A DNA stretch of 32,000 bases from Crocosphaera subtropica ATCC 51142 (GCF_000017845.1 NC_010546.1:2070001-2102000), one strand, 5' to 3'; counted from the stretch's first letter, positions 7,532 to 28,187 are shown. A program made the numbers and translations. The notes: generated by a model not told the origin, from the sequence alone.

Positions 7532-9229
7532 TTACTTATTTTTTGTGAGAAAAGGACGAACCAAAAACCATCCCCCTAATAAGAAAAAGAAGGCCATGGA
7601 TCTCGGTTCATCAACCTGTGGACCGCCATTGATAAAAAACTGACTCCGTTGCCAGACTTCTGTGGCGACTTGACGACCTAACTTGCGGCCTTCTAAATCC
7701 CCACAAATAAAGTGGATACCACCATAACATCGAGAAATTCCTGCTTCGTTCGCTGCCTCGGTAAAGGTTGTCCAGGAGAGAGTTACGGGACGACTAGGAG
7801 TGAACCCAGGTTCAAAACGAGAAGACCCCACCGGAAAAGTAATCGAATCCCCATAAAAATCACTGCCAGTCAATAACTTTAAGATTTCTGCTGCTGCTGC
7901 ACTAAAACCACTGTGTCCTGACGTATACTCAGGAAACGGAGGGGAAGGGTTGCCTTCTGGATTTTGATAGGTCATAAAGTCTGTGGCTAGAATCCGTTGG
8001 GTTCCCTGTTGGGGTCCTCCCCACGCATCAATATAACAGTCTCCACTACCAGGAACCTCTTCTGTCCCGATCAGGCATAACCGTCCTAACTCACGAATGG
8101 CACGGACGGGACGAGCATAGTCATAATAATATTTACTATCCCAAACGGCAATGCCTGCATCCATGACGGAATTACCCAACGCAAAAAACAACTTCACCTC
8201 TTCATCTAAACCATAGCCATCTCGTTGGGATACAAATTGACCAATTTCTAACCAATGACCCGGCGGAAAAGCGGTTCCACTGGGGTCTTCCCAATATTCG
8301 GCGATCATTTTTTCTTCATCCGTTAGGTTAGCACTGAAACTGATGATCGCTTCAGATTCATTGATGAAATCGGGGTTAATATCAATGCCAATAATATCTT
8401 TACTAATAGGAACAACCGTACCGTCCCTACGAGTAATGGTTTCAGCTTGTAAGTCTGCTGTAGCTAAGGGGTCCAGTAAAAATGAAAAAGGGGTGGGAGG
8501 ACGAAATTGACTACCAGAGGTGAGGGCAAAGGGAGTCACCTCTCCCCATTGAGGGGTCAAAGGGCTTTGAATGGGGGCATTCAGATTATCGATGGGAATG
8601 TGTTCGGCTGTCCAACGGGTGATATCGATAACCAATGGTTCTTGACCCGGTAAGGTGAGATTAACGGGCTGATAACCGGTTGTATCAGCATAATTATTGA
8701 GTTGGTTAGAACCATCCAGACGACGAGACTGCATCAGGGTTTCTGCCATGATGTTACCGATTCCGGCTGCTGTGGTGCTGTCAGTGGTGTTATTATCGGG
8801 GTTAAAGCCTAAATTAACCATTTGGTTCCTAAATAGAGTCTCTTGATTGGGAAATAACTCTGCTAGGACTCGGTAAGAAGCATAACTAATGGCTTCTATC
8901 TTATTGTTCTCAGTATTTTCTTGACGGGGGCGTTGCAAACTATCTTCTAACAGGGTACTAATGGGAGTGGGTTCATAGGCCGCCCAAGCGTCGTAAATGG
9001 CAGTTCCTAAAAGCCCATAAGCCCGTGACGCTGAGGTGGGTCCAGTAATGGGATCTCCGGTGATGGGGGTATTCTCAACCGCCATTAAAGTAAGATCCAC
9101 CCAGTCACTGACGATAGTGGTTGCACTAACGGGCAATATTGCGGCGACGCTACTGGTTAAGACTCCCATAGGCAGTAGGGAAGACAATAATTTAATGTTG
9201 ACTTTTTTCATAATTTTCCCAAGATTCAT
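7532..9229 (-). CDS. secreted PAP2-superfamily / vanadium-dependent haloperoxidase-like protein with PEP-CTERM-like tail
   Basis: N-terminal signal peptide. The PAP2/V-HPO motif set is present: KYYYDYARP (Kx6RP), PEYTSGHSG (PSGH-like) and SRCYGGIHF (SRx5H). The C-terminus DEP-SMAFFFLLGGWFLV-RPFLTKNK resembles a PEP-CTERM anchor. An alternative ATG lies at 9211. Confidence 0.8.
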   Translation of the reverse strand: MNLGKIMKKVNIKLLSSLLPMGVLTSSVAAILPVSATTIVSDWVDLTLMAVENTPITGDPITGPTSASRAYGLLGTAIYDAWAAYEPTPISTLLEDSLQRPRQENTENNKIEAISYASYRVLAELFPNQETLFRNQMVNLGFNPDNNTTDSTTAAGIGNIMAETLMQSRRLDGSNQLNNYADTTGYQPVNLTLPGQEPLVIDITRWTAEHIPIDNLNAPIQSPLTPQWGEVTPFALTSGSQFRPPTPFSFLLDPLATADLQAETITRRDGTVVPISKDIIGIDINPDFINESEAIISFSANLTDEEKMIAEYWEDPSGTAFPPGHWLEIGQFVSQRDGYGLDEEVKLFFALGNSVMDAGIAVWDSKYYYDYARPVRAIRELGRLCLIGTEEVPGSGDCYIDAWGGPQQGTQRILATDFMTYQNPEGNPSPPFPEYTSGHSGFSAAAAEILKLLTGSDFYGDSITFPVGSSRFEPGFTPSRPVTLSWTTFTEAANEAGISRCYGGIHFICGDLEGRKLGRQVATEVWQRSQFFINGGPQVDEPRSMAFFFLLGGWFLVRPFLTKNK

Positions 9230-15577: not shown

Positions 15578-15718
15578 CCTGAGTTCGGTGTTAGGAGTTC
15601 GGAGTGCGACTACGTCGTGCTACGCAACGGAGTTAGGATTTTTTTAACGAGGGAATCAGAGTTTGAGACTTCCTATTTTGACACGTTATCTATCAATTTC
15701 CTTATATCGAACTCAGGT
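15576..15718 (+). repeat. MITE-like repeat element, copy A (full length)
   Basis: ACCTGAGTTCG (15577-15587) is the exact reverse complement of CGAACTCAGGT (15708-15718). Between them lie eight in-phase heptamers from 15581 (GAGTTCG GTGTTAG GAGTTCG GAGTGCG ... GAGTTAG), a T7 run (15639-15645) and the core AACGAGGGAATCAGAGTTTGAGA (15646-15668). Related copies occur at 22748 and 28133. Confidence 0.8.
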
Positions 15719-21916: not shown

Positions 21917-22160
21917 AAATAGATTGTTCAAGGAGTGATCTGCTATGAGTTAATTTAATTTATATTAATTACAGAACATAAATAACAAATATTATAATAC
22001 CTTAACTTTTCTAGTTTAGGATACAACTGTTAAAATTATCATGATATTGGCCAAGTAATTATTATCTAAAATCAATTATGTCATCACATCTTTAAATTCA
22101 GTGATTGATAAAACTCATTCTAGGCTAAAATCAAAGGAGTCCTATTAGTTGAACATCATT

Positions 22161-22529
22161 ATGAAAGACTTACCCCCTCTTAACACTGACACCATTAATG
22201 CCATTCTCAATGAAGAAATTGATGATGAAACAGTGATGCAAATGGTGTGGTATTATTTGGGATATCGTTATGATGAAAACAGTAAAACCTGGGATAGTTC
22301 CGAGGTAGAAGCATCCTGGAAAGAAGTCTATCCCGAACCGCCAAACTTTATTGAAAATCGTCCTCCTACCGTAAAATTGACCCGTTCTATTCCGAAAGAA
22401 AATAAACAGTTATTGAAAGAAAAATTAGGCTTTAAAGGCTATAAATTAGGCACTTTTGACCCTAGGGATACCCGTCGTGCAACTATGGCTAATTGGTTAT
22501 TAAGTTATTTAATGATACACTCATCTTAA
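22161..22529 (+). CDS. DUF1823 family protein (conserved cyanobacterial/plastid-lineage hypothetical)
   Basis: About 122 aa. The sequence LPPLNTDTINAILNEEIDDETVMQMVWYYLGYRYD...TRRATMANWL matches my recollection of DUF1823. The track start 22149 is TTG and the first ATG is at 22161; either start is possible. Confidence 0.6.
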   Translation: MKDLPPLNTDTINAILNEEIDDETVMQMVWYYLGYRYDENSKTWDSSEVEASWKEVYPEPPNFIENRPPTVKLTRSIPKENKQLLKEKLGFKGYKLGTFDPRDTRRATMANWLLSYLMIHSS

Positions 22530-22747
22530 TTCAGTGAATACACAAAATTGATTTCCTAGTTAGAACAAGCACAAGGCAACGAGGTTATTGCAATGTGTAA
22601 TTAATTCGGCTTACATAGTTAATTGTTTTCTATTAAACACTAAAATTAAGAGTTCAAATTTGGTGAAAGCTCCAAAAAGAAATAGCTATTATAGGAAAAA
22701 GTCAAGAAATAAATTTTATCTCACAGTTAATAAAGACGGAACTTTTT

Positions 22748-22933
22748 AACCTGAGTTCGGTGTTAGGGGTTCGGAGGAAGGCATTAACACTATGGGTCTT
22801 CTGGCTTAACGTGAGTTCGGAGTTAGGAGTTCCGAGGTCAAAGTTAGGATTTTTTTAACGAGGAAATTAGGGTTTGAGAGTTCTTGTTAGTTGTCAGTTC
22901 TTCATAGATTCTCTTCTGTCCAACTCACGTTGG
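22748..22933 (+). repeat. MITE-like repeat element, copy B (composite, two heptamer arrays)
   Basis: The first 30 nt are near-identical to copy A (AACCTGAGTTCGGTGTTAGGGGTTCGGAG). A second left end AACGTGAGTT (22808-22817) is complementary to AACTCACGTT (22922-22931). Heptamers GAGTTCG GAGTTAG GAGTTCC GAGGTCA AAGTTAG span 22813-22847, followed by a T-run and the core variant AACGAGGAAATTAGGGTTTGAGA (22857-22879). Confidence 0.8.
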
Positions 22934-23074: not shown

Positions 23075-24289
23075 ATGCGCCTTAGACAAAATATTGTAGC
23101 TATATTTTCTACTTTCCTACAATTCGAGGCAGACCAGTTTAGCCATTGGTCTAGGGACCCTCAATTGCATCGTAGCATGAAAAAATGTCTAGCTGAGCAG
23201 TCGTTGAAGGAACGCTCTGAGCGTTTTTGGGGACTCTATTGGTACAAAATTTGGGAAACATCTTCTCAGTCCCAACAAAAAGCCCACACAAGGCAAGCGA
23301 GATCCCATCTGACTGCTTACTTACAAGAAGCGGGTTACTGGGCTGCTAAAAAAGCCACTACTGATTTTCGGCAACTCAACTATGAAGTGTCTGATTGCTT
23401 TCAAATTGCTTTATCTTCGGTTGATCGTATCCTTCAAGGGTTTGATCCCCTTCAAACAGGTAATTTCAAAAGCTATGCCAGCATTGTTCTATCCAATCAT
23501 ATTAGAGAAATTTTACGGCAAAGACAAGAAATTGATATTTGTAGCCCCTGGGCTTTATTACGCAAATTGAGTCAAAAACGGCTGGTCGAATCATTACAAC
23601 AGGCAGGTTTATCAACTGAAACGATCAACGCTTATGTCCTCGTTTGGAAGTGTTTTAAAAGTAATTATGTTCCCAGTGGCGGTTCGCCTCCCACTAGAAC
23701 CCGTCAATTACCAAAACCGGATAATGCTACCCTAGAGGCGATCGCTAACCAGTATAATCAAGACCGCTATAGTCAACTAAATGTGCCTGGATCGACTCTT
23801 AACCCTCAAACCATAGAACAATATCTTCTCGATTGTGTCAAAGCGGCCCGCGCCTATCTTTACCCAACTGTTTCCTCCATTAATCAGCCAACCCCAGGAC
23901 AAGAAAGTGGGGAATTAGTCGATATTTTACCTGAATCTGAATCCGAATCCCTATTAGGAGATTTAATTACCCAAGAAGAAGAACAGCAACGGTTGTCCCA
24001 ACAAGCTCAGATGAATCAAACATTAACAGCAATTTTGACTCAAATCACCCCAGACTTGCAACAAATTCTTGATCTTTATTATGGTCAAGGATTAACGCAA
24101 AAGGAGATTGCTCAACAATTAGAAACGAAGCAATATACGGTTTCACGACGTTTAACCAAAGCCAAACAAACTCTTTTGTTGAAATTGAGTCAATGGAGTC
24201 AACAAACCCTGCATATTTCCTTAACTTCGGACATACTCAATAGTATGAGTACCGTTTTAGAGGAATGGTTAACCAACCATTATCAGTAG
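23075..24289 (+). CDS. sigma-70 family RNA polymerase sigma factor, atypically long (404 aa)
   Basis: Region 2-like segment aa ~78-150 (LTAYLQEAGYWAAKKA...FDPLQTGNFKSYASIVLSNHIREILRQ). Region 4 HTH aa ~325-370 (LQQILDLYYGQGLTQKEIAQQLETKQYTVSRRLTKAKQTLLLKL). Clean ATG start. Confidence 0.85.
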   Translation: MRLRQNIVAIFSTFLQFEADQFSHWSRDPQLHRSMKKCLAEQSLKERSERFWGLYWYKIWETSSQSQQKAHTRQARSHLTAYLQEAGYWAAKKATTDFRQLNYEVSDCFQIALSSVDRILQGFDPLQTGNFKSYASIVLSNHIREILRQRQEIDICSPWALLRKLSQKRLVESLQQAGLSTETINAYVLVWKCFKSNYVPSGGSPPTRTRQLPKPDNATLEAIANQYNQDRYSQLNVPGSTLNPQTIEQYLLDCVKAARAYLYPTVSSINQPTPGQESGELVDILPESESESLLGDLITQEEEQQRLSQQAQMNQTLTAILTQITPDLQQILDLYYGQGLTQKEIAQQLETKQYTVSRRLTKAKQTLLLKLSQWSQQTLHISLTSDILNSMSTVLEEWLTNHYQ

Positions 24290-24307
24290 ATCGAAAACTG
24301 ACTTGTT

Positions 24308-24386
24308 TGGGCCCCAAGGGAGACGAGCGACCCCGGTCGGGTTCCCCGACATAGGGAACGCACGAGGAGCGCCGAAGCAGGGGAGA
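24308..24386. other. isolated GC-rich island (~70% G+C) in the sigma-DUF1822 spacer; possible structured RNA or regulatory element
   Basis: Hand count gives 55 G/C in 77 nt (24309-24385), against an AT-rich background. Two mutually exclusive hairpins are possible: GTCGG/CCGAC (24336-24340 / 24346-24350) or GTTCCC/GGGAAC (24341-24346 / 24354-24359). No convincing ORF. Confidence 0.5.
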
Positions 24387-24604
24387 TTATTTTGAACTAT
24401 TTTAGAGAAAATAAAGAGTTTAAACGCCATAAAATCCTAAAAAACAACTATACTCACTAATTTATTCTTGTTTCCCCTACTTTCTTTCTCCCATTCTCTA
24501 TTATCCCTGCTCCCCCACAATCTTAACTAGGATCTTGATGATCTACTTATTATGGCTCAACCCCTTCTTCTTCTACTTAACCACTGCTTATTAGGGAATA
24601 TCCC

Positions 24605-25756
24605 ATGACTTTCTTATTTGCTCAACCTAACCAACTTTGGCTTGAACTATCAGAGACTAACCTCTCCCAAGCTTGGCAACAAAGCCATATTTGTTCGAGT
24701 GCTACCACAAGATGGCGAGCCTATCTCAATAGACTAAGCTTAACTTGTTTTCTTTCCTATGTTCAAGAAGAATGGTCCTATAGGATGACAAGTTGGCCAG
24801 AAGACCCTTTGACCAACTTGTGGGAATTGGTTGAGGGTTCAACCCTTATTTTAGGGAATAAACGCATTGTCCTCTTGCCAACGGAAGCAATGGATGAGGA
24901 TGAACTACGGGTTCCTCAAGAATGGATTGATATTCCTGAATGGGTGGCTGATTATTATCTCGCTGCTCAAGTTAATTTAGATGAGCAATGGTTAAACATT
25001 TGGGGTTACACGACCCATCAAAAATTAAAAGAGATAGGACACTATAATAGTAGCGATCGCACTTACAGCCTAGAGAAACCATTTTTATTTCAAGACATCA
25101 ACGCCTTTTGGGTATCCCAAGAACTGGCTTTAGAAGAAGTCACTCAAGGGGAGATTCTTCCCTTAACCCCTTTATCTTCAGTACAAGCTGAAAATTTAAT
25201 TGAGCGTTTAGGTAATGCTGAATTAAAAGAACCCCGTCTCGCTGTTCCCTTCACCCTTTGGGGTTCACTCCTTGCTAATTCCAGTTGGCGACAACAATTG
25301 TCTCAACATCGTCAAGGGAATACTCAACCTAATGTCTTGGTTAACTTAAGCAGTTGGTTCGATAATCTCTTTGAAAGCTCTTGGCAAGCTCCAGAAACCT
25401 TAAATTTAGCCTTTAGTAGCCGACGCAATACCACAGCCAACACTCAGACCATTCAACGAGCTAATTTAATTACCCTGGGTAGAGAACAAGTTATTTTACT
25501 GGTCGAACTCACCCCCGAAGAGGATGGTAGAATCGCTATCAGTCTTCAACTCTTTCCCCCGTCCAACCGTCGTTATTTACCAGAAATGATACAACTGACC
25601 TTGTTATCAGAAACGGGGGAGGTTTTGCGATCGGTTCAATCTCGCACTCAAGATAATGCCATCAGAATTCCTCGGTTTAAGTGTGCCACAGGATTTCGTT
25701 TTCGTCTTCAGATCACACTCAATGAGCATTGCATCACAGAGGATTTTATTGTCTAA
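24605..25756 (+). CDS. DUF1822 family protein (cyanobacteria-restricted, function unknown)
   Basis: 383 aa with no TM and about 15 Trp. The N-terminal pattern ...AWQQS...RWRAYLNRLSLTCFLSYVQEEW and the beta-rich C-terminus (VILLVELTPEEDGRIAISLQLFP...LPEMIQLTLLSETGEVL...GFRFRLQITLNEHCITEDF) match my recollection of DUF1822. The stop abuts the next ATG. Confidence 0.7.
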   Translation: MTFLFAQPNQLWLELSETNLSQAWQQSHICSSATTRWRAYLNRLSLTCFLSYVQEEWSYRMTSWPEDPLTNLWELVEGSTLILGNKRIVLLPTEAMDEDELRVPQEWIDIPEWVADYYLAAQVNLDEQWLNIWGYTTHQKLKEIGHYNSSDRTYSLEKPFLFQDINAFWVSQELALEEVTQGEILPLTPLSSVQAENLIERLGNAELKEPRLAVPFTLWGSLLANSSWRQQLSQHRQGNTQPNVLVNLSSWFDNLFESSWQAPETLNLAFSSRRNTTANTQTIQRANLITLGREQVILLVELTPEEDGRIAISLQLFPPSNRRYLPEMIQLTLLSETGEVLRSVQSRTQDNAIRIPRFKCATGFRFRLQITLNEHCITEDFIV

Positions 25757-28129
25757 ATGAGTAAACTGGTTGTTTTAAAATTGGGCAAAGGAAATTGGCA
25801 ACAGGGATTTTCTAATGTCAATGTCCAAGTTTCAGAACCGAATCGTCCCATGTCTTTGCAACTAAGTGGGAGTTTACCCTCTGACCTAGAATTATGGGAC
25901 CAGTATCAACAATGGCGGAATCTTTACGAAGCCCTTTCTGTGAATTTGAGATTGCGTCGTTATCGTAGTTCGATGCAGCCCATGATTGAATTTGATAGCG
26001 AAGAAGTTACCCATATTTCCGATGGAGAATTTCTCTACCTGTGCGATCAATTAGAACAACAATTAAATCGGTGGTTAAGCACAGAATCCTTTAGTCGCAT
26101 TGAACGTCAACTACGCAGTCATCTCAATGTTGGCGATGAAATTCGCTTGATTATCGAAACCGAAAATCAGGAACTGCGACGGTTTCCTTGGCATTTGTGG
26201 CATTTTTTTGAAGATTATCCTTTCGTTGAAGTCGCTTTAAGTCCGGCTGAATATGGACAGGTTTCGACAGCTTCAGTGCAACGAACTGGAAAGGTGAGAG
26301 TTTTAGCCATTTTAGGTAACAGTCAAGGAATTGATGTTGAAAAGGATCGTACTATCCTTCAACAATTACCCGATGGTGAGGTAATTTTTCTAGTTGAACC
26401 TCAACGTCAAGACTTGGATCGTTGGTTGTGGGATGAACAAGGATGGGACATTTTATTTTTTGCAGGTCACAGTTTTAGTCAATCCCAAGGAATGACCGGA
26501 CAGTTAGAAATTAATCCCCAAGAGTCTCTTTCTTTATCACAACTACGCAATGCTTTAAAAACAGCCATTCGTCATGGATTAAAACTGGCTATTTTCAACT
26601 CCTGTGACGGTTTAGGATTAGCCCAACAATTAGCCGATTTACATATTCCCCAAACTATCGTTATGCGGGAATCCGTTCCTGATGTGGTTGCTCAGGAGTT
26701 TCTGACCCATTTTTTGAGAGCTTTTTCGGGGGGAAAATCTTTTTATTGTTCCGTTCGAGAAGCTAGGGAACGGTTACAAGGACTAGAAGGGTTATTTCCT
26801 TGTGCGAGTTGGTTACCTGTAATTTGTCAAAATCCTGTCGAAACACCACCAAATTGGCAGAAATTACGGGATAAACAAGCAAATTCATCGGTGATTTCTC
26901 CTTCTCGACCAAAAGTAAGAGGGATTGTCCTAGCTAGTTTAGCAGTCACTATAGTAACGATGGGGTTTCGTTGGTTGGGATGGTTGCAAAGTTGGGAACT
27001 GAAAGCCTTTGATTATTTCATGGTACATCGTCCCCAACAAGAAGCTGATAACCGTTTATTAATTATTGGAGCCGATGAGGAGGATCTGAATCGCTATGGT
27101 TATCCCCTTTCCGATGAGGTAATCGATAAACTCCTGACTCAATTGCAATCCTATCAGCCTTCGGTCATCGGTATGGATATTTTTCGAGATCAACCTGTAT
27201 TGACTTCTAATGTGGCTAAATCTTCTCCCTTGTCTCAAACCTTAGCCCAAAGTCAGAATGTGGTTGCCATTTGTACTTTTGGAGAAAGTTTAGCTGCTAG
27301 TGTTGCTCCCCCTGAATCCATTTCCCCTCAACAAGTAGGCTTTGTTAATCTATACGACGATCGCCAGCCAACTCAGGGAGGAGATGATATGGTTCGTCGT
27401 TATCTTCTTTCCCGTAGTGCCAATCCTTTAGAAGCAATGTCCCGTTGCACAACTCCCTATTCTTTTGCTTGGCAACTGGCTTATCGTTATCTTCAGAACC
27501 AAGATATTTCCGTCATATCTCAAGGGGAAGACTGGCGGTTTGGTAAGGTATTGGTTCAACGTTTAAAAAACCGCAGTGCAGGTTATCAAACCTTGGACGA
27601 ACGGGGAAATCAATTACTGATTAACTATAAAAATACACCGCAAATTGCTCAACATATAACCGTTCGAGATATTTTAGATAATAACAAACATCTCAATCCT
27701 GCTTGGATTAAAGATCGAGTCGTATTAATTGGCATTACGGCTCCTAGTATTCCTGATAGGCATGATACTCCTTATGGCGAAATTCGAGGCATCAATATTC
27801 ATGCCCATGTCGTTAGTCAGTTATTGAGCGCAGCAGAAGGCAACAATTCCACTTTATTTTGGTGGTTACCTCAGTGGGGAGATTTTCTGTTAACGTTATT
27901 TTGGTCATTAATAGGAGGATTGATTGTTTATCTTCACCAACCGCTTTATCGAGTCGGTTTTGTTGTGTTTTCTTTGTTATTTATGTCGGGAATTTATTGG
28001 TTTATTTTTCTTCAACAGGGATGGCTTCCTCTCATTCCGTCCGCACTGGCTTTTTTAGGGTCAGTTGGAATAATTGTTTTGATAAAAAATTTAAAAATTG
28101 GCAAATATAACAGTATAAAAAAAGGTTAG
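25757..28129 (+). CDS. CHAT (caspase-like protease) domain fused to CHASE2 sensor, membrane protein
   Basis: CHAT core aa ~178-360 with VRVLAILGN, FFAGHS (H238, nt 26468-26470) and IFNSCDG (C283, nt 26603-26605). TM1 spans aa ~388-410. CHASE2 hallmarks are present (WELKAFDYF...LLIIGADEEDLNRYGYPLSDEV...IGMDIFRDQP, VGFVNLYDD...MVRRYLL, DRVVLIGITAPSIPDRHDTPYGEIRGINIHAHVVSQLL). Three C-terminal TM helices span aa ~707-776. Confidence 0.85.
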   Translation: MSKLVVLKLGKGNWQQGFSNVNVQVSEPNRPMSLQLSGSLPSDLELWDQYQQWRNLYEALSVNLRLRRYRSSMQPMIEFDSEEVTHISDGEFLYLCDQLEQQLNRWLSTESFSRIERQLRSHLNVGDEIRLIIETENQELRRFPWHLWHFFEDYPFVEVALSPAEYGQVSTASVQRTGKVRVLAILGNSQGIDVEKDRTILQQLPDGEVIFLVEPQRQDLDRWLWDEQGWDILFFAGHSFSQSQGMTGQLEINPQESLSLSQLRNALKTAIRHGLKLAIFNSCDGLGLAQQLADLHIPQTIVMRESVPDVVAQEFLTHFLRAFSGGKSFYCSVREARERLQGLEGLFPCASWLPVICQNPVETPPNWQKLRDKQANSSVISPSRPKVRGIVLASLAVTIVTMGFRWLGWLQSWELKAFDYFMVHRPQQEADNRLLIIGADEEDLNRYGYPLSDEVIDKLLTQLQSYQPSVIGMDIFRDQPVLTSNVAKSSPLSQTLAQSQNVVAICTFGESLAASVAPPESISPQQVGFVNLYDDRQPTQGGDDMVRRYLLSRSANPLEAMSRCTTPYSFAWQLAYRYLQNQDISVISQGEDWRFGKVLVQRLKNRSAGYQTLDERGNQLLINYKNTPQIAQHITVRDILDNNKHLNPAWIKDRVVLIGITAPSIPDRHDTPYGEIRGINIHAHVVSQLLSAAEGNNSTLFWWLPQWGDFLLTLFWSLIGGLIVYLHQPLYRVGFVVFSLLFMSGIYWFIFLQQGWLPLIPSALAFLGSVGIIVLIKNLKIGKYNSIKKG

Positions 28130-28132
28130 CAT

Positions 28133-28187
28133 AACCTGAGTTCGGGGTTCGGAGTTCGGATTTTTTAACGAGGGAATCAGAGTTTGA
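28133..28187 (+). repeat. MITE-like repeat element, copy C (short, right end degenerate)
   Basis: AACCTGAGTTCG left end, heptamers GAGTTCG GGGTTCG GAGTTCG (28138-28158), a T6 run, and the core AACGAGGGAATCAGAGTTTGA (28167-28187). It fills the 47-nt gap between two convergent stop codons and contains the coaBC stop. Confidence 0.75.

Follow-up and report, generated by a model that had tools for sequence, protein, structure and literature searches.

A conserved cyanobacterial gene trio encoding a sigma factor, a DUF1822 protein and a CHAT-CHASE2 membrane protein: a candidate signal-gated proteolytic sigma switch

Could a caspase-like protease carry a signal from the cyanobacterial envelope to a sigma factor? 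Three adjoining genes of Crocosphaera subtropica ATCC 51142 (formerly Cyanothece 51142) raise this question. They encode a sigma-70-family factor (cce_2056), a DUF1822 protein (cce_2057) and a CHAT-CHASE2 membrane protein (cce_2058; accessions ACB51406 to ACB51408 for the three). We studied them in a 32,000-nucleotide (nt) stretch of the genome (NC_010546.1:2070001-2102000), hereafter the window, and coordinates without a locus name are counted from its first letter. The original prediction, made from the sequence of the window alone, held that the CHASE2 sensor activates the CHAT protease, which then cleaves either DUF1822 or the extensions of the sigma factor. We find this prediction partly supported: all of its domain calls and the three-way linkage of the genes hold, and the proteolytic sigma switch is what we infer.

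The three open reading frames lie on the + strand at 23075-24289, 24605-25756 and 25757-28129, as predicted. The claim that nothing else is encoded between them is borne out as well, with no open reading frame of at least 60 amino acids (aa) in the spacers and only short ones nested within the trio genes. Profile searches with Pfam and NCBIfam confirmed the sigma-70-family, DUF1822, CHAT and CHASE2 assignments. The combination has been noticed before: Kaur, Iyer, Burroughs and Aravind (eLife 2021, PMC8195603) listed EACC2-caspase genes together with a sigma factor of the extracytoplasmic function (ECF) type and DUF1822 in a computational study, the searched parts of which put forward a similar idea, EACC2-caspase autoproteolysis in a conflict or immunity setting. 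The statement that the trio lacks an experimental description therefore needs qualifying, since we found no experimental study of it but a computational description with a similar proposal already exists in the searched parts of that paper. Literature searches by locus tag (cce_2056 to cce_2058), by DUF928 and by orthocaspase plus sigma factor returned no relevant study, and the main text of the ECF classification paper by Casas-Pastor et al. (2021) contains neither CHAT nor CHASE2.

If the three proteins act together, their genes should stay together in other genomes. We scanned one genome per species with a DUF1822 alignment, obtained at least 583 loci, and drew statistics from the best 80. 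Among these, the immediate upstream neighbour of DUF1822 is the sigma gene in 69 of the 75 loci with room for it, and a CHAT gene follows directly downstream in 72 of 74, carrying CHASE2 in 65 of 68. By these neighbourhood counts the three families co-occur far beyond chance, and the trio loci range over Nostocales, Oscillatoriales, Leptolyngbya-like and unicellular forms. We assembled a second set of 82 loci around the sigma gene, from a metagenome scan and two genomes. Here DUF1822 is the next gene in 71 of 74 loci, and a CHAT gene is present in just 4 of the 82 (1 of the 32 with room both upstream and downstream). Because DUF1822 adjoins the sigma gene so regularly while CHAT is rare in this set, we regard the sigma-DUF1822 pair as the core of the system. 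DUF1822 is the constant hub: sigma-DUF1822 pairs without CHAT and DUF1822-CHAT pairs without this sigma factor both occur. In one Calothrix locus (sp. PCC 7716, L062:8186-12953), an insert of approximately 4.7 kilobases (kb) separates DUF1822 from the CHAT-CHASE2 gene.

The gene junctions fit the same core. In the window, the DUF1822 stop codon and the CHAT start codon do abut (TAAATG, 25754-25759), as originally noted. This arrangement is confined to close relatives of this genome, and the tight junction elsewhere is usually the one between sigma and DUF1822. Across 74 loci that spacer mostly measures -4 to 30 nt, a tightness typical of sigma/anti-sigma pairs, and the gap between DUF1822 and CHAT varies from -4 to several hundred nt. 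The window's own sigma-DUF1822 spacer (24290-24604, +) is atypical at 315 nt, unusually long for the family. Positions 24305-24390 within it are a GC-rich insertion, about 85 nt long, which the closest relatives L001 and L002 lack. Its folding z-score is merely -1.7, so that it is not significantly structured, and no Rfam model matched anywhere in the window at the gathering threshold, the insert included. A scan for generic sigma-70 promoters and terminators gave matches at or under the shuffle expectation.

In the proposed switch, cce_2058 would be both a protease and a membrane sensor. The CHAT match (PF12770, 3e-14, 53.5 bits against a cut-off of 24) covers aa 105-342 of its 790 residues, and the CHASE2 match (PF05226, 1e-63, 215.8 bits) covers aa 398-722. 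The His/Cys dyad sits at the residues originally named, H238 in LFFAGHSFS (codon 26468-26470) and C283 in AIFNSCDGL (codon 26603-26605), within a caspase-fold domain encoded at 26057-26866 (+). We compared 36 paralogues with unrelated C-termini and found H238 and C283, with their GHS and NSCDG motifs, to be invariant. CHAT is also the best-conserved part of the locus, with a median orthologue identity of 62% versus 35-44% for the sigma factor, DUF1822, the first 100 aa of cce_2058 and CHASE2. Judged from the sequence, the domain is thus a predicted protease with an intact dyad, and the invariance of that dyad together with the high conservation points to a protease under selection. A CHAT-module profile found no relative at E <= 1 among PDB sequences.

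Hydropathy agrees with the predicted topology of one transmembrane helix before CHASE2 and three after it, placing the segments at aa 389-407, 708-726, 733-751 and 758-776. With basic residues ahead of the first helix and throughout the C-terminal tail, CHAT is predicted to be cytoplasmic and CHASE2 extracytoplasmic. This membrane sensor part, comprising the first helix, CHASE2, the three C-terminal helices, the basic tail (predicted cytoplasmic) and the stop codon, is encoded at 26921-28129 (+). Unlike in most CHASE2 proteins, the output domain is N-terminal to the sensor. The first 100 aa (25757-26056, +) have no Pfam match and a median identity of approximately 37% across orthologues; they are the positional counterpart of the "EACC2" domain of Kaur et al. 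and belong to a constant module, aa 1-370, that is 49-61% identical across paralogues. The C-termini attached to the constant CHAT module are diverse and include CHASE2, TIR, nSTAND1, adenylate/guanylate cyclase, LysM, Macro, PsbP_2, CVNH, GUN4, pentapeptide, TPR and DUF8082. Several such paralogues can follow one DUF1822 gene (three in L081, two after the sigma-DUF1822 pair in L171), which fits several sensors feeding one switch.

What, then, would the protease act on? The DUF1822 protein matches PF08852 over all 370 profile positions (4.9e-92, 309 bits against a cut-off of 25) and belongs to a family of 2,416 clusters at 50% identity. It is Trp-rich, as predicted, with 15 Trp (3.9%). Its AlphaFold2 (AF2) model has a mean predicted local distance difference test (pLDDT) score of 82 and divides the protein in two. 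An alpha/beta domain and a helical region make up the N-terminal module, aa 1-240 (24605-25324, +; PF08852 positions 1-222), where pLDDT is mostly 80-95. Eight beta-strands (aa 283-382) make up a C-terminal sandwich, aa 283-383, encoded with the stop codon at 25451-25756 (+). Between them runs a linker, aa 241-282 (25325-25450, +), modelled with low confidence at aa 244-279 and with pLDDT below 50 at aa 244-257 and 271-279. Despite its predicted disorder, this linker carries a conserved motif, vnLSrWle...WqaiEt..lAf.fR, in one of the two types of DUF1822 protein described below (type 1), and some members of the family have insertions at its position. It is a candidate docking or cleavage segment.

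The label of DUF1822 as a TPR protein, given by Kaur et al., does not suit the AF2 model. The searched tables of that paper (PMC8195603) give short DUF1822 proteins the label "TRADD-N+TPRs", with "EACC2+CASPASE+CHASE2+TM+TM" as the entry that comes next, so the "TPRs" label in those tables covers the module modelled here as a beta-sandwich. No TRADD-N entry was among the 50 best Foldseek matches of the whole-chain window protein. Foldseek gave no whole-chain match for DUF1822, and a PDB sequence search returned nothing at E <= 10 but one spurious match. The C-terminal sandwich alone had weak Ig-like and MATH-like matches with template modelling scores of about 0.25; the MATH domain of SPOP stood among the many Ig-like matches of aa 283-383 at a probability of 0.4-0.8 and the same score of about 0.25. 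In animals, TRADD-N binds a MATH domain. The sandwich may be MATH-like and echo that pairing, a weaker possibility for which the match is too weak to make a claim. Apart from one contig, everything named in our searches agreed with the claim that DUF1822 is restricted to cyanobacteria. That contig, L004 (JAKVAR010000137.1), is binned as Crocinitomicaceae (Bacteroidota) and carries a full trio about 52% identical to that of the window and very like that of the unicellular cyanobacterium L003; it is probably mis-binned.

We compared 152 DUF1822 proteins to see how the two halves are distributed. The N-terminal module is conserved in every group, whether the gene is linked to CHAT, linked to a Peptidase_C14 (C14) gene, or unlinked. 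The C-terminal 140 aa come in two clearly different yet homologous types. Type 1, to which the window protein belongs, adjoins co-directional CHAT genes and is retained by short DUF1822 proteins without the N-terminal module, and type 2 is found at C14-linked loci and at loci without a nearby protease gene. The type does not strictly predict the protease family, a rule broken by plasmid pCC7120alpha. In more distantly related systems, short DUF1822 proteins consist of the linker and sandwich only (Pfam positions of about 198-370); a CHAT gene lies directly downstream of them, and the gene upstream is not this sigma factor. C-module-only proteins of 218-235 aa occur at L173:767-1423, L174:4746-5453 and L169:6287-6988; the adjoining CHAT genes are very large where the locus is on a plasmid. 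On a Pseudanabaena plasmid, a 216-aa sigma factor is paired with a DUF1822 protein that matches the window protein over the C-terminal module alone (aa 247-383). On this sequence comparison, the two modules segregate with two partners, the N-terminal module with this sigma factor and the linker plus sandwich with CHAT.

Co-variation pointed in the same direction. Using 65 complete trios, we calculated partial correlations between distance matrices (mirror-tree analysis) with bootstrap intervals. The highest values joined the DUF1822 N-module to sigma regions 2/3 (0.48, interval 0.16-0.51) and the DUF1822 C-module to CHAT (0.30, 0.05-0.40). The C-module with the N-extension of the sigma factor gave 0.26 (0.01-0.35). 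The intervals spanned zero for the N-module with CHAT, for the C-module with sigma 2/3, and for sigma 2/3 with either CHAT or EACC2. Because the sequences share ancestry, we treat this result as suggestive only.

A further indication that proteolysis matters came from loci in which a different protease stands near the pair. In the sigma-anchored set, a Peptidase_C14 (orthocaspase) gene was present at 23 loci, corresponding to 18 of the 47 whose upstream sequence reaches 3 kb or more. It is mostly divergent, immediately upstream of the sigma gene, and beside type-2 sigma-DUF1822 pairs, which form a sister clade in which this orthocaspase stands in place of CHAT. The N-terminal 270 aa of the C14 protein form a second constant module, mostly 56-84% identical between loci, and continue into nSTAND1 and WD40 repeats at some loci and into roughly 450 aa of soluble sequence at others. 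Examples are L126:4271-6562(-) and L148:1393-6726(-), with some 20 further sigma-anchored loci. That two caspase-fold families occur in the same position is, in our view, a strong argument that protease function matters to the sigma-DUF1822 pair.

The third member of the trio is an atypical sigma factor. The 404-aa protein (23075-24289, +) matches TIGR02937 (2e-30, aa 81-370) and Sigma70_r4 (6e-09, aa 321-364); only the superfamily-level TIGR02937 passes its cut-off, and no ECF subfamily model does. An N-extension (aa 1-75) is followed by sigma2 (approximately aa 78-165), a sigma3-like helical domain (approximately aa 167-262), an acidic disordered linker (aa 265-291), the sigma4 helix-turn-helix (approximately aa 293-372) and a C-extension (aa 373-404). 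The full length is conserved across the alignment, both extensions included. In the AF2 model (mean pLDDT 74, below 50 for aa 1-27), the stretch of about 95 aa that separates sigma2 from sigma4, a conserved helical domain, is modelled with confidence. Foldseek matched the model to sigma2-sigma3-sigma4 factors (SigD, SigB, sigmaA and sigma32 among them) in alignments of 325-360 columns, and the closest relatives of region 4 are SigF and FliA. Its length and sigma3-like domain set the protein apart from minimal two-domain ECF factors (group 4, about 200 aa, without sigma3). Because the model aligns with three-domain factors and region 4 is nearest to SigF and FliA, the protein looks better described as an atypical group-3-like factor with three domains. 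We considered whether it corresponds to SigJ of Nostoc; no evidence for this turned up, and no dedicated test was made.

Taken together, these observations suggest a signalling module in which a sensor-activated CHAT protease cleaves DUF1822 and frees the sigma factor, a reading that we favour tentatively and put at somewhat under an even chance. The CHAT-CHASE2 protein would sit in the membrane with CHASE2 outside and the caspase-fold CHAT domain in the cytoplasm. Soluble DUF1822 would bind the co-encoded sigma factor through its N-terminal module, the predicted sigma-facing part, and keep it inactive, while its linker and beta-sandwich would be the part recognised by the protease. On detecting a cue, CHASE2 would prompt CHAT to cleave DUF1822, most plausibly in the disordered linker at approximately aa 241-282, and the released sigma factor would steer RNA polymerase to its regulon. 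The inferred elements of this scheme are that DUF1822 binds sigma and holds it back, that it is cleaved and where this happens, and what kind of signal sets off the switch.

Several results weigh against such a switch. Among the sigma-anchored loci, 32 have room both upstream and downstream, and about 19 of these lack a nearby caspase-fold gene. On pCC7120alpha, a type-2 DUF1822 gene stands beside a divergent CHAT-CHASE2 gene. The mirror-tree signal is modest, and its sequences are phylogenetically non-independent. Neither k-mer enrichment nor inspection by eye revealed a shared bipartite promoter upstream of 142 sigma genes, where only clade-specific strings near the start codon were found and none common across clades. 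Neither in sequence nor in fold does DUF1822 detectably resemble Csx30, CalpT or any known anti-sigma domain, and cce_2057 contains no class I anti-sigma domain (zf-HC2, RskA and the like), with Pfam and NCBIfam giving DUF1822 alone. The absence of an anti-sigma domain (ASD) makes it less likely that DUF1822 is an ASD protein and leaves untouched the idea that it acts as an anti-sigma factor.

The best-surviving alternative concerns the role of the system more than its chemistry. On the proposal in the searched parts of Kaur et al. (2021, PMC8195603), the EACC2-caspase would cut itself on an invader cue sensed by its variable C-terminus and set off a sigma-driven defence response, so that the trio would serve defence or programmed cell death and not envelope signalling. 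Its mechanism overlaps that of the switch described above. In its favour, the constant module is joined to TIR, Macro, nSTAND1, cyclase, LysM, CVNH, pentapeptide and further domains of the kind that conflict systems typically use, and some genomes have two or more loci (L036 and L080 being examples). Mobility fits as well: DUF1822 occurs on 31 cyanobacterial plasmid records, among them the conjugative plasmids pNPUN03 (N. punctiforme) and pCC7120alpha (Nostoc sp. PCC 7120). Yet neither DUF1822 nor the CHAT-CHASE2 protein is matched by a PADLOC model, and the phage record collection contained no DUF1822. The window trio sits amid the housekeeping genes FtsH, UvrB, EF-G and CoaBC. In addition, orthologues of the CHASE2 variant are widely conserved and keep a stable synteny, unlike a hypervariable island, and CHASE2 is a sensor domain, not a releasable effector. 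We judge this reading unlikely.

The two plasmids show the module in different arrangements. In L167 (NC_003276.1 335726-346409, pCC7120alpha), the sigma-DUF1822 pair and the CHAT-CHASE2 gene, at about 336.5-341.9 kb of the plasmid, are transcribed divergently. In L168 (NC_010630.1 62709-73911, pNPUN03), the genes, at 65.2-70.1 kb, are ordered as they are in the window, with a gene for a tyrosine recombinase a few kb further upstream.

Alternatively, the protease might cut the sigma factor itself. DUF1822 would then be a scaffold that presents sigma to the protease, which would trim the N-extension (aa 1-75) or the C-extension (aa 373-404) and thereby activate it. Pro-sigmaE and pro-sigmaK of Bacillus are activated in a comparable way. 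Both extensions lie outside the sigma2-4 core and are strongly conserved, and the low pLDDT of aa 1-27 would suit a piece that is cut away or that becomes folded when it meets a partner; the partial correlation between the DUF1822 C-module and the N-extension (given above) also fits. However, the extensions are equally conserved in sigma-DUF1822 pairs without a nearby protease gene, and the correlations of sigma 2/3 with CHAT and EACC2 span zero. C-module-only DUF1822 proteins moreover stay beside CHAT where this sigma factor is missing, which makes DUF1822 itself look like the partner of the protease. Processing of the sigma factor therefore strikes us as quite unlikely. Least probable of all is mere co-regulation, in which sigma and DUF1822 form a cofactor or anti-sigma pair and the caspase-fold genes belong to the sigma regulon or share its cue with no proteolytic link: many pairs do lack a protease gene within 7 kb and some protease genes are divergent from the pair, as one would expect of a regulated target, but this leaves unexplained why the DUF1822 C-module stays with CHAT genes when sigma is absent, why two caspase-fold families occupy one position, and why the C-module and CHAT co-vary.

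Cleavage of DUF1822 by CHAT might be one case of a wider scheme. DUF1822 could be a general two-module adaptor that couples CHAT or Peptidase_C14 proteases with swappable sensors to various outputs, namely this sigma factor, other sigma factors, and HTH (helix-turn-helix)/TRADD-N proteins. The CHASE2 version would then be a membrane-signal-gated, non-CRISPR caspase-to-sigma switch widespread in cyanobacteria. We regard this generalization as possible but doubtful. If the proposed cleavage mechanism is right, caspase-like proteolysis would be a routine cyanobacterial route from an external or cellular cue to a change of sigma factor, a principle that has to date been demonstrated in CRISPR-associated systems alone (Craspase, CalpL) and would thereby be extended, and a function would be given both to the DUF1822 family and to an unclassified sigma family. 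The system is widespread and uncharacterised, and because the module is present on plasmids of the tractable strains Nostoc sp. PCC 7120 and Nostoc punctiforme, the hypothesis is directly testable.

Genes accompanying the trio elsewhere may offer hints to the rest of the pathway. At many Nostocales loci the CHAT-CHASE2 gene is immediately followed by a gene for a secreted DUF928 protein (23 loci), and HlyD (18), a C39-peptidase ABC exporter (17) and giant TPS-domain proteins (14) are further companions. Examples are L031:10785-11765, L050:10646-14486, L048:803-5470 and L171. These proteins are possible ligands, regulon members or secretion partners; none of the four gene types is present in the window.

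The neighbours of the trio in the window are housekeeping genes (FtsH, UvrB, EF-G, MltA, CoaBC and an ABC permease), and no cas-family or known defence domain turned up among the window's open reading frames scanned. Upstream of the sigma gene, on the same strand, a DUF1823 gene lies at 22149-22529. It is not a conserved neighbour at other loci and is probably unrelated to the trio. Tandem heptamers (GAGTTCG or GGGTTCG) resembling short tandemly repeated repetitive (STRR) sequences bracket the trio at 22746-22837 and 28136-28163 and recur in an intergenic position at 15581-15606. The matches number 8, where 0.5 would be expected, and the heptamers are probably generic repeats of the intergenic regions in this genome. 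Two other features are unconnected with the trio: a protein with DUF6851 and a vanadium-chloroperoxidase-like helical bundle at 7532-9229(-), and a long, sugar-phosphate nucleotidyltransferase-like open reading frame at approximately 29.9-32.0 kb(+) that crosses the end of the window.

How does the trio compare with known systems? It is closest to the EACC2 system of Kaur et al., the searched parts of which describe a constant small domain and a caspase-fold module with a His/Cys dyad, a variable C-terminus that may be CHASE2 with transmembrane helices, and adjoining sigma and DUF1822 genes. The window trio has both the protein architecture and the neighbourhood. It is thus an ordinary member of a predicted EACC2-caspase/sigma/DUF1822 class and will come as no surprise to specialists, although the locus itself was not found in the searchable parts of the paper's tables. 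Our description differs in two respects from what those parts say: DUF1822 is called a TPR protein there and is modelled here as alpha/beta plus beta-sandwich, and the sigma factor is called ECF there and looks three-domain here. The sigma-DUF1822 core pair, the C14 partner, and the two-module split and non-TPR fold of DUF1822 are absent from the searched passages and tables and may be new. The same may hold for the three-domain sigma factor and the occurrence of the module in tractable model strains, which are likewise absent from them.

Sigma release by a protease has experimental precedents in Csx29/Csx30/CASP-sigma, CalpL/CalpT/CalpS and SAVED-CHAT/PCaspase/PCc-sigma (bioRxiv 10.1101/2023.06.23.546230), although none of the three window proteins could be recognised as belonging to those families. 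The type III-E Craspase (Csx29, Csx30, CASP-sigma) shares the logic proposed here, with a CHAT protease, a sigma-binding partner (large, soluble and with a region between its domains that can be cleaved) and a sigma output. Its sensor, however, is an RNA-guided complex, whereas membrane-bound CHASE2 would take that part here, and we saw no gRAMP or CRISPR context in the window. The window sigma factor scored 22 bits against a cut-off of 100 on the CAS_III-E_sigma model (NF041236), DUF1822 has no detectable similarity to Csx30, and cce_2058 lacks the TPR domain of the TPR-CHAT protease. On these three counts the trio is not a type III-E Craspase.

The CalpL-CalpT-CalpS and SAVED-CHAT/PCaspase/PCc-sigma systems resemble the trio in being tripartite modules of a signal-activated protease, a partner and a sigma factor. 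CalpL, a type III-B SAVED-Lon protease, cleaves the anti-sigma factor CalpT and so frees the ECF sigma factor CalpS (bioRxiv 10.1101/2023.06.23.546230). These Lon-SAVED and SAVED-CHAT proteases differ in being activated by cyclic oligoadenylate in a CRISPR or CBASS (cyclic-oligonucleotide-based antiphage signalling system) context, and their partner proteins are not detectably related to DUF1822. Regulated intramembrane proteolysis of RseA by DegS and RseP likewise leads from an extracytoplasmic cue through proteolysis to sigma release. There the resemblance ends: DUF1822 is soluble, with neither an anti-sigma domain nor a transmembrane segment, the window sigma factor is not a two-domain ECF factor, and the predicted sensor is fused to the caspase-fold protease that it would control from across the membrane.

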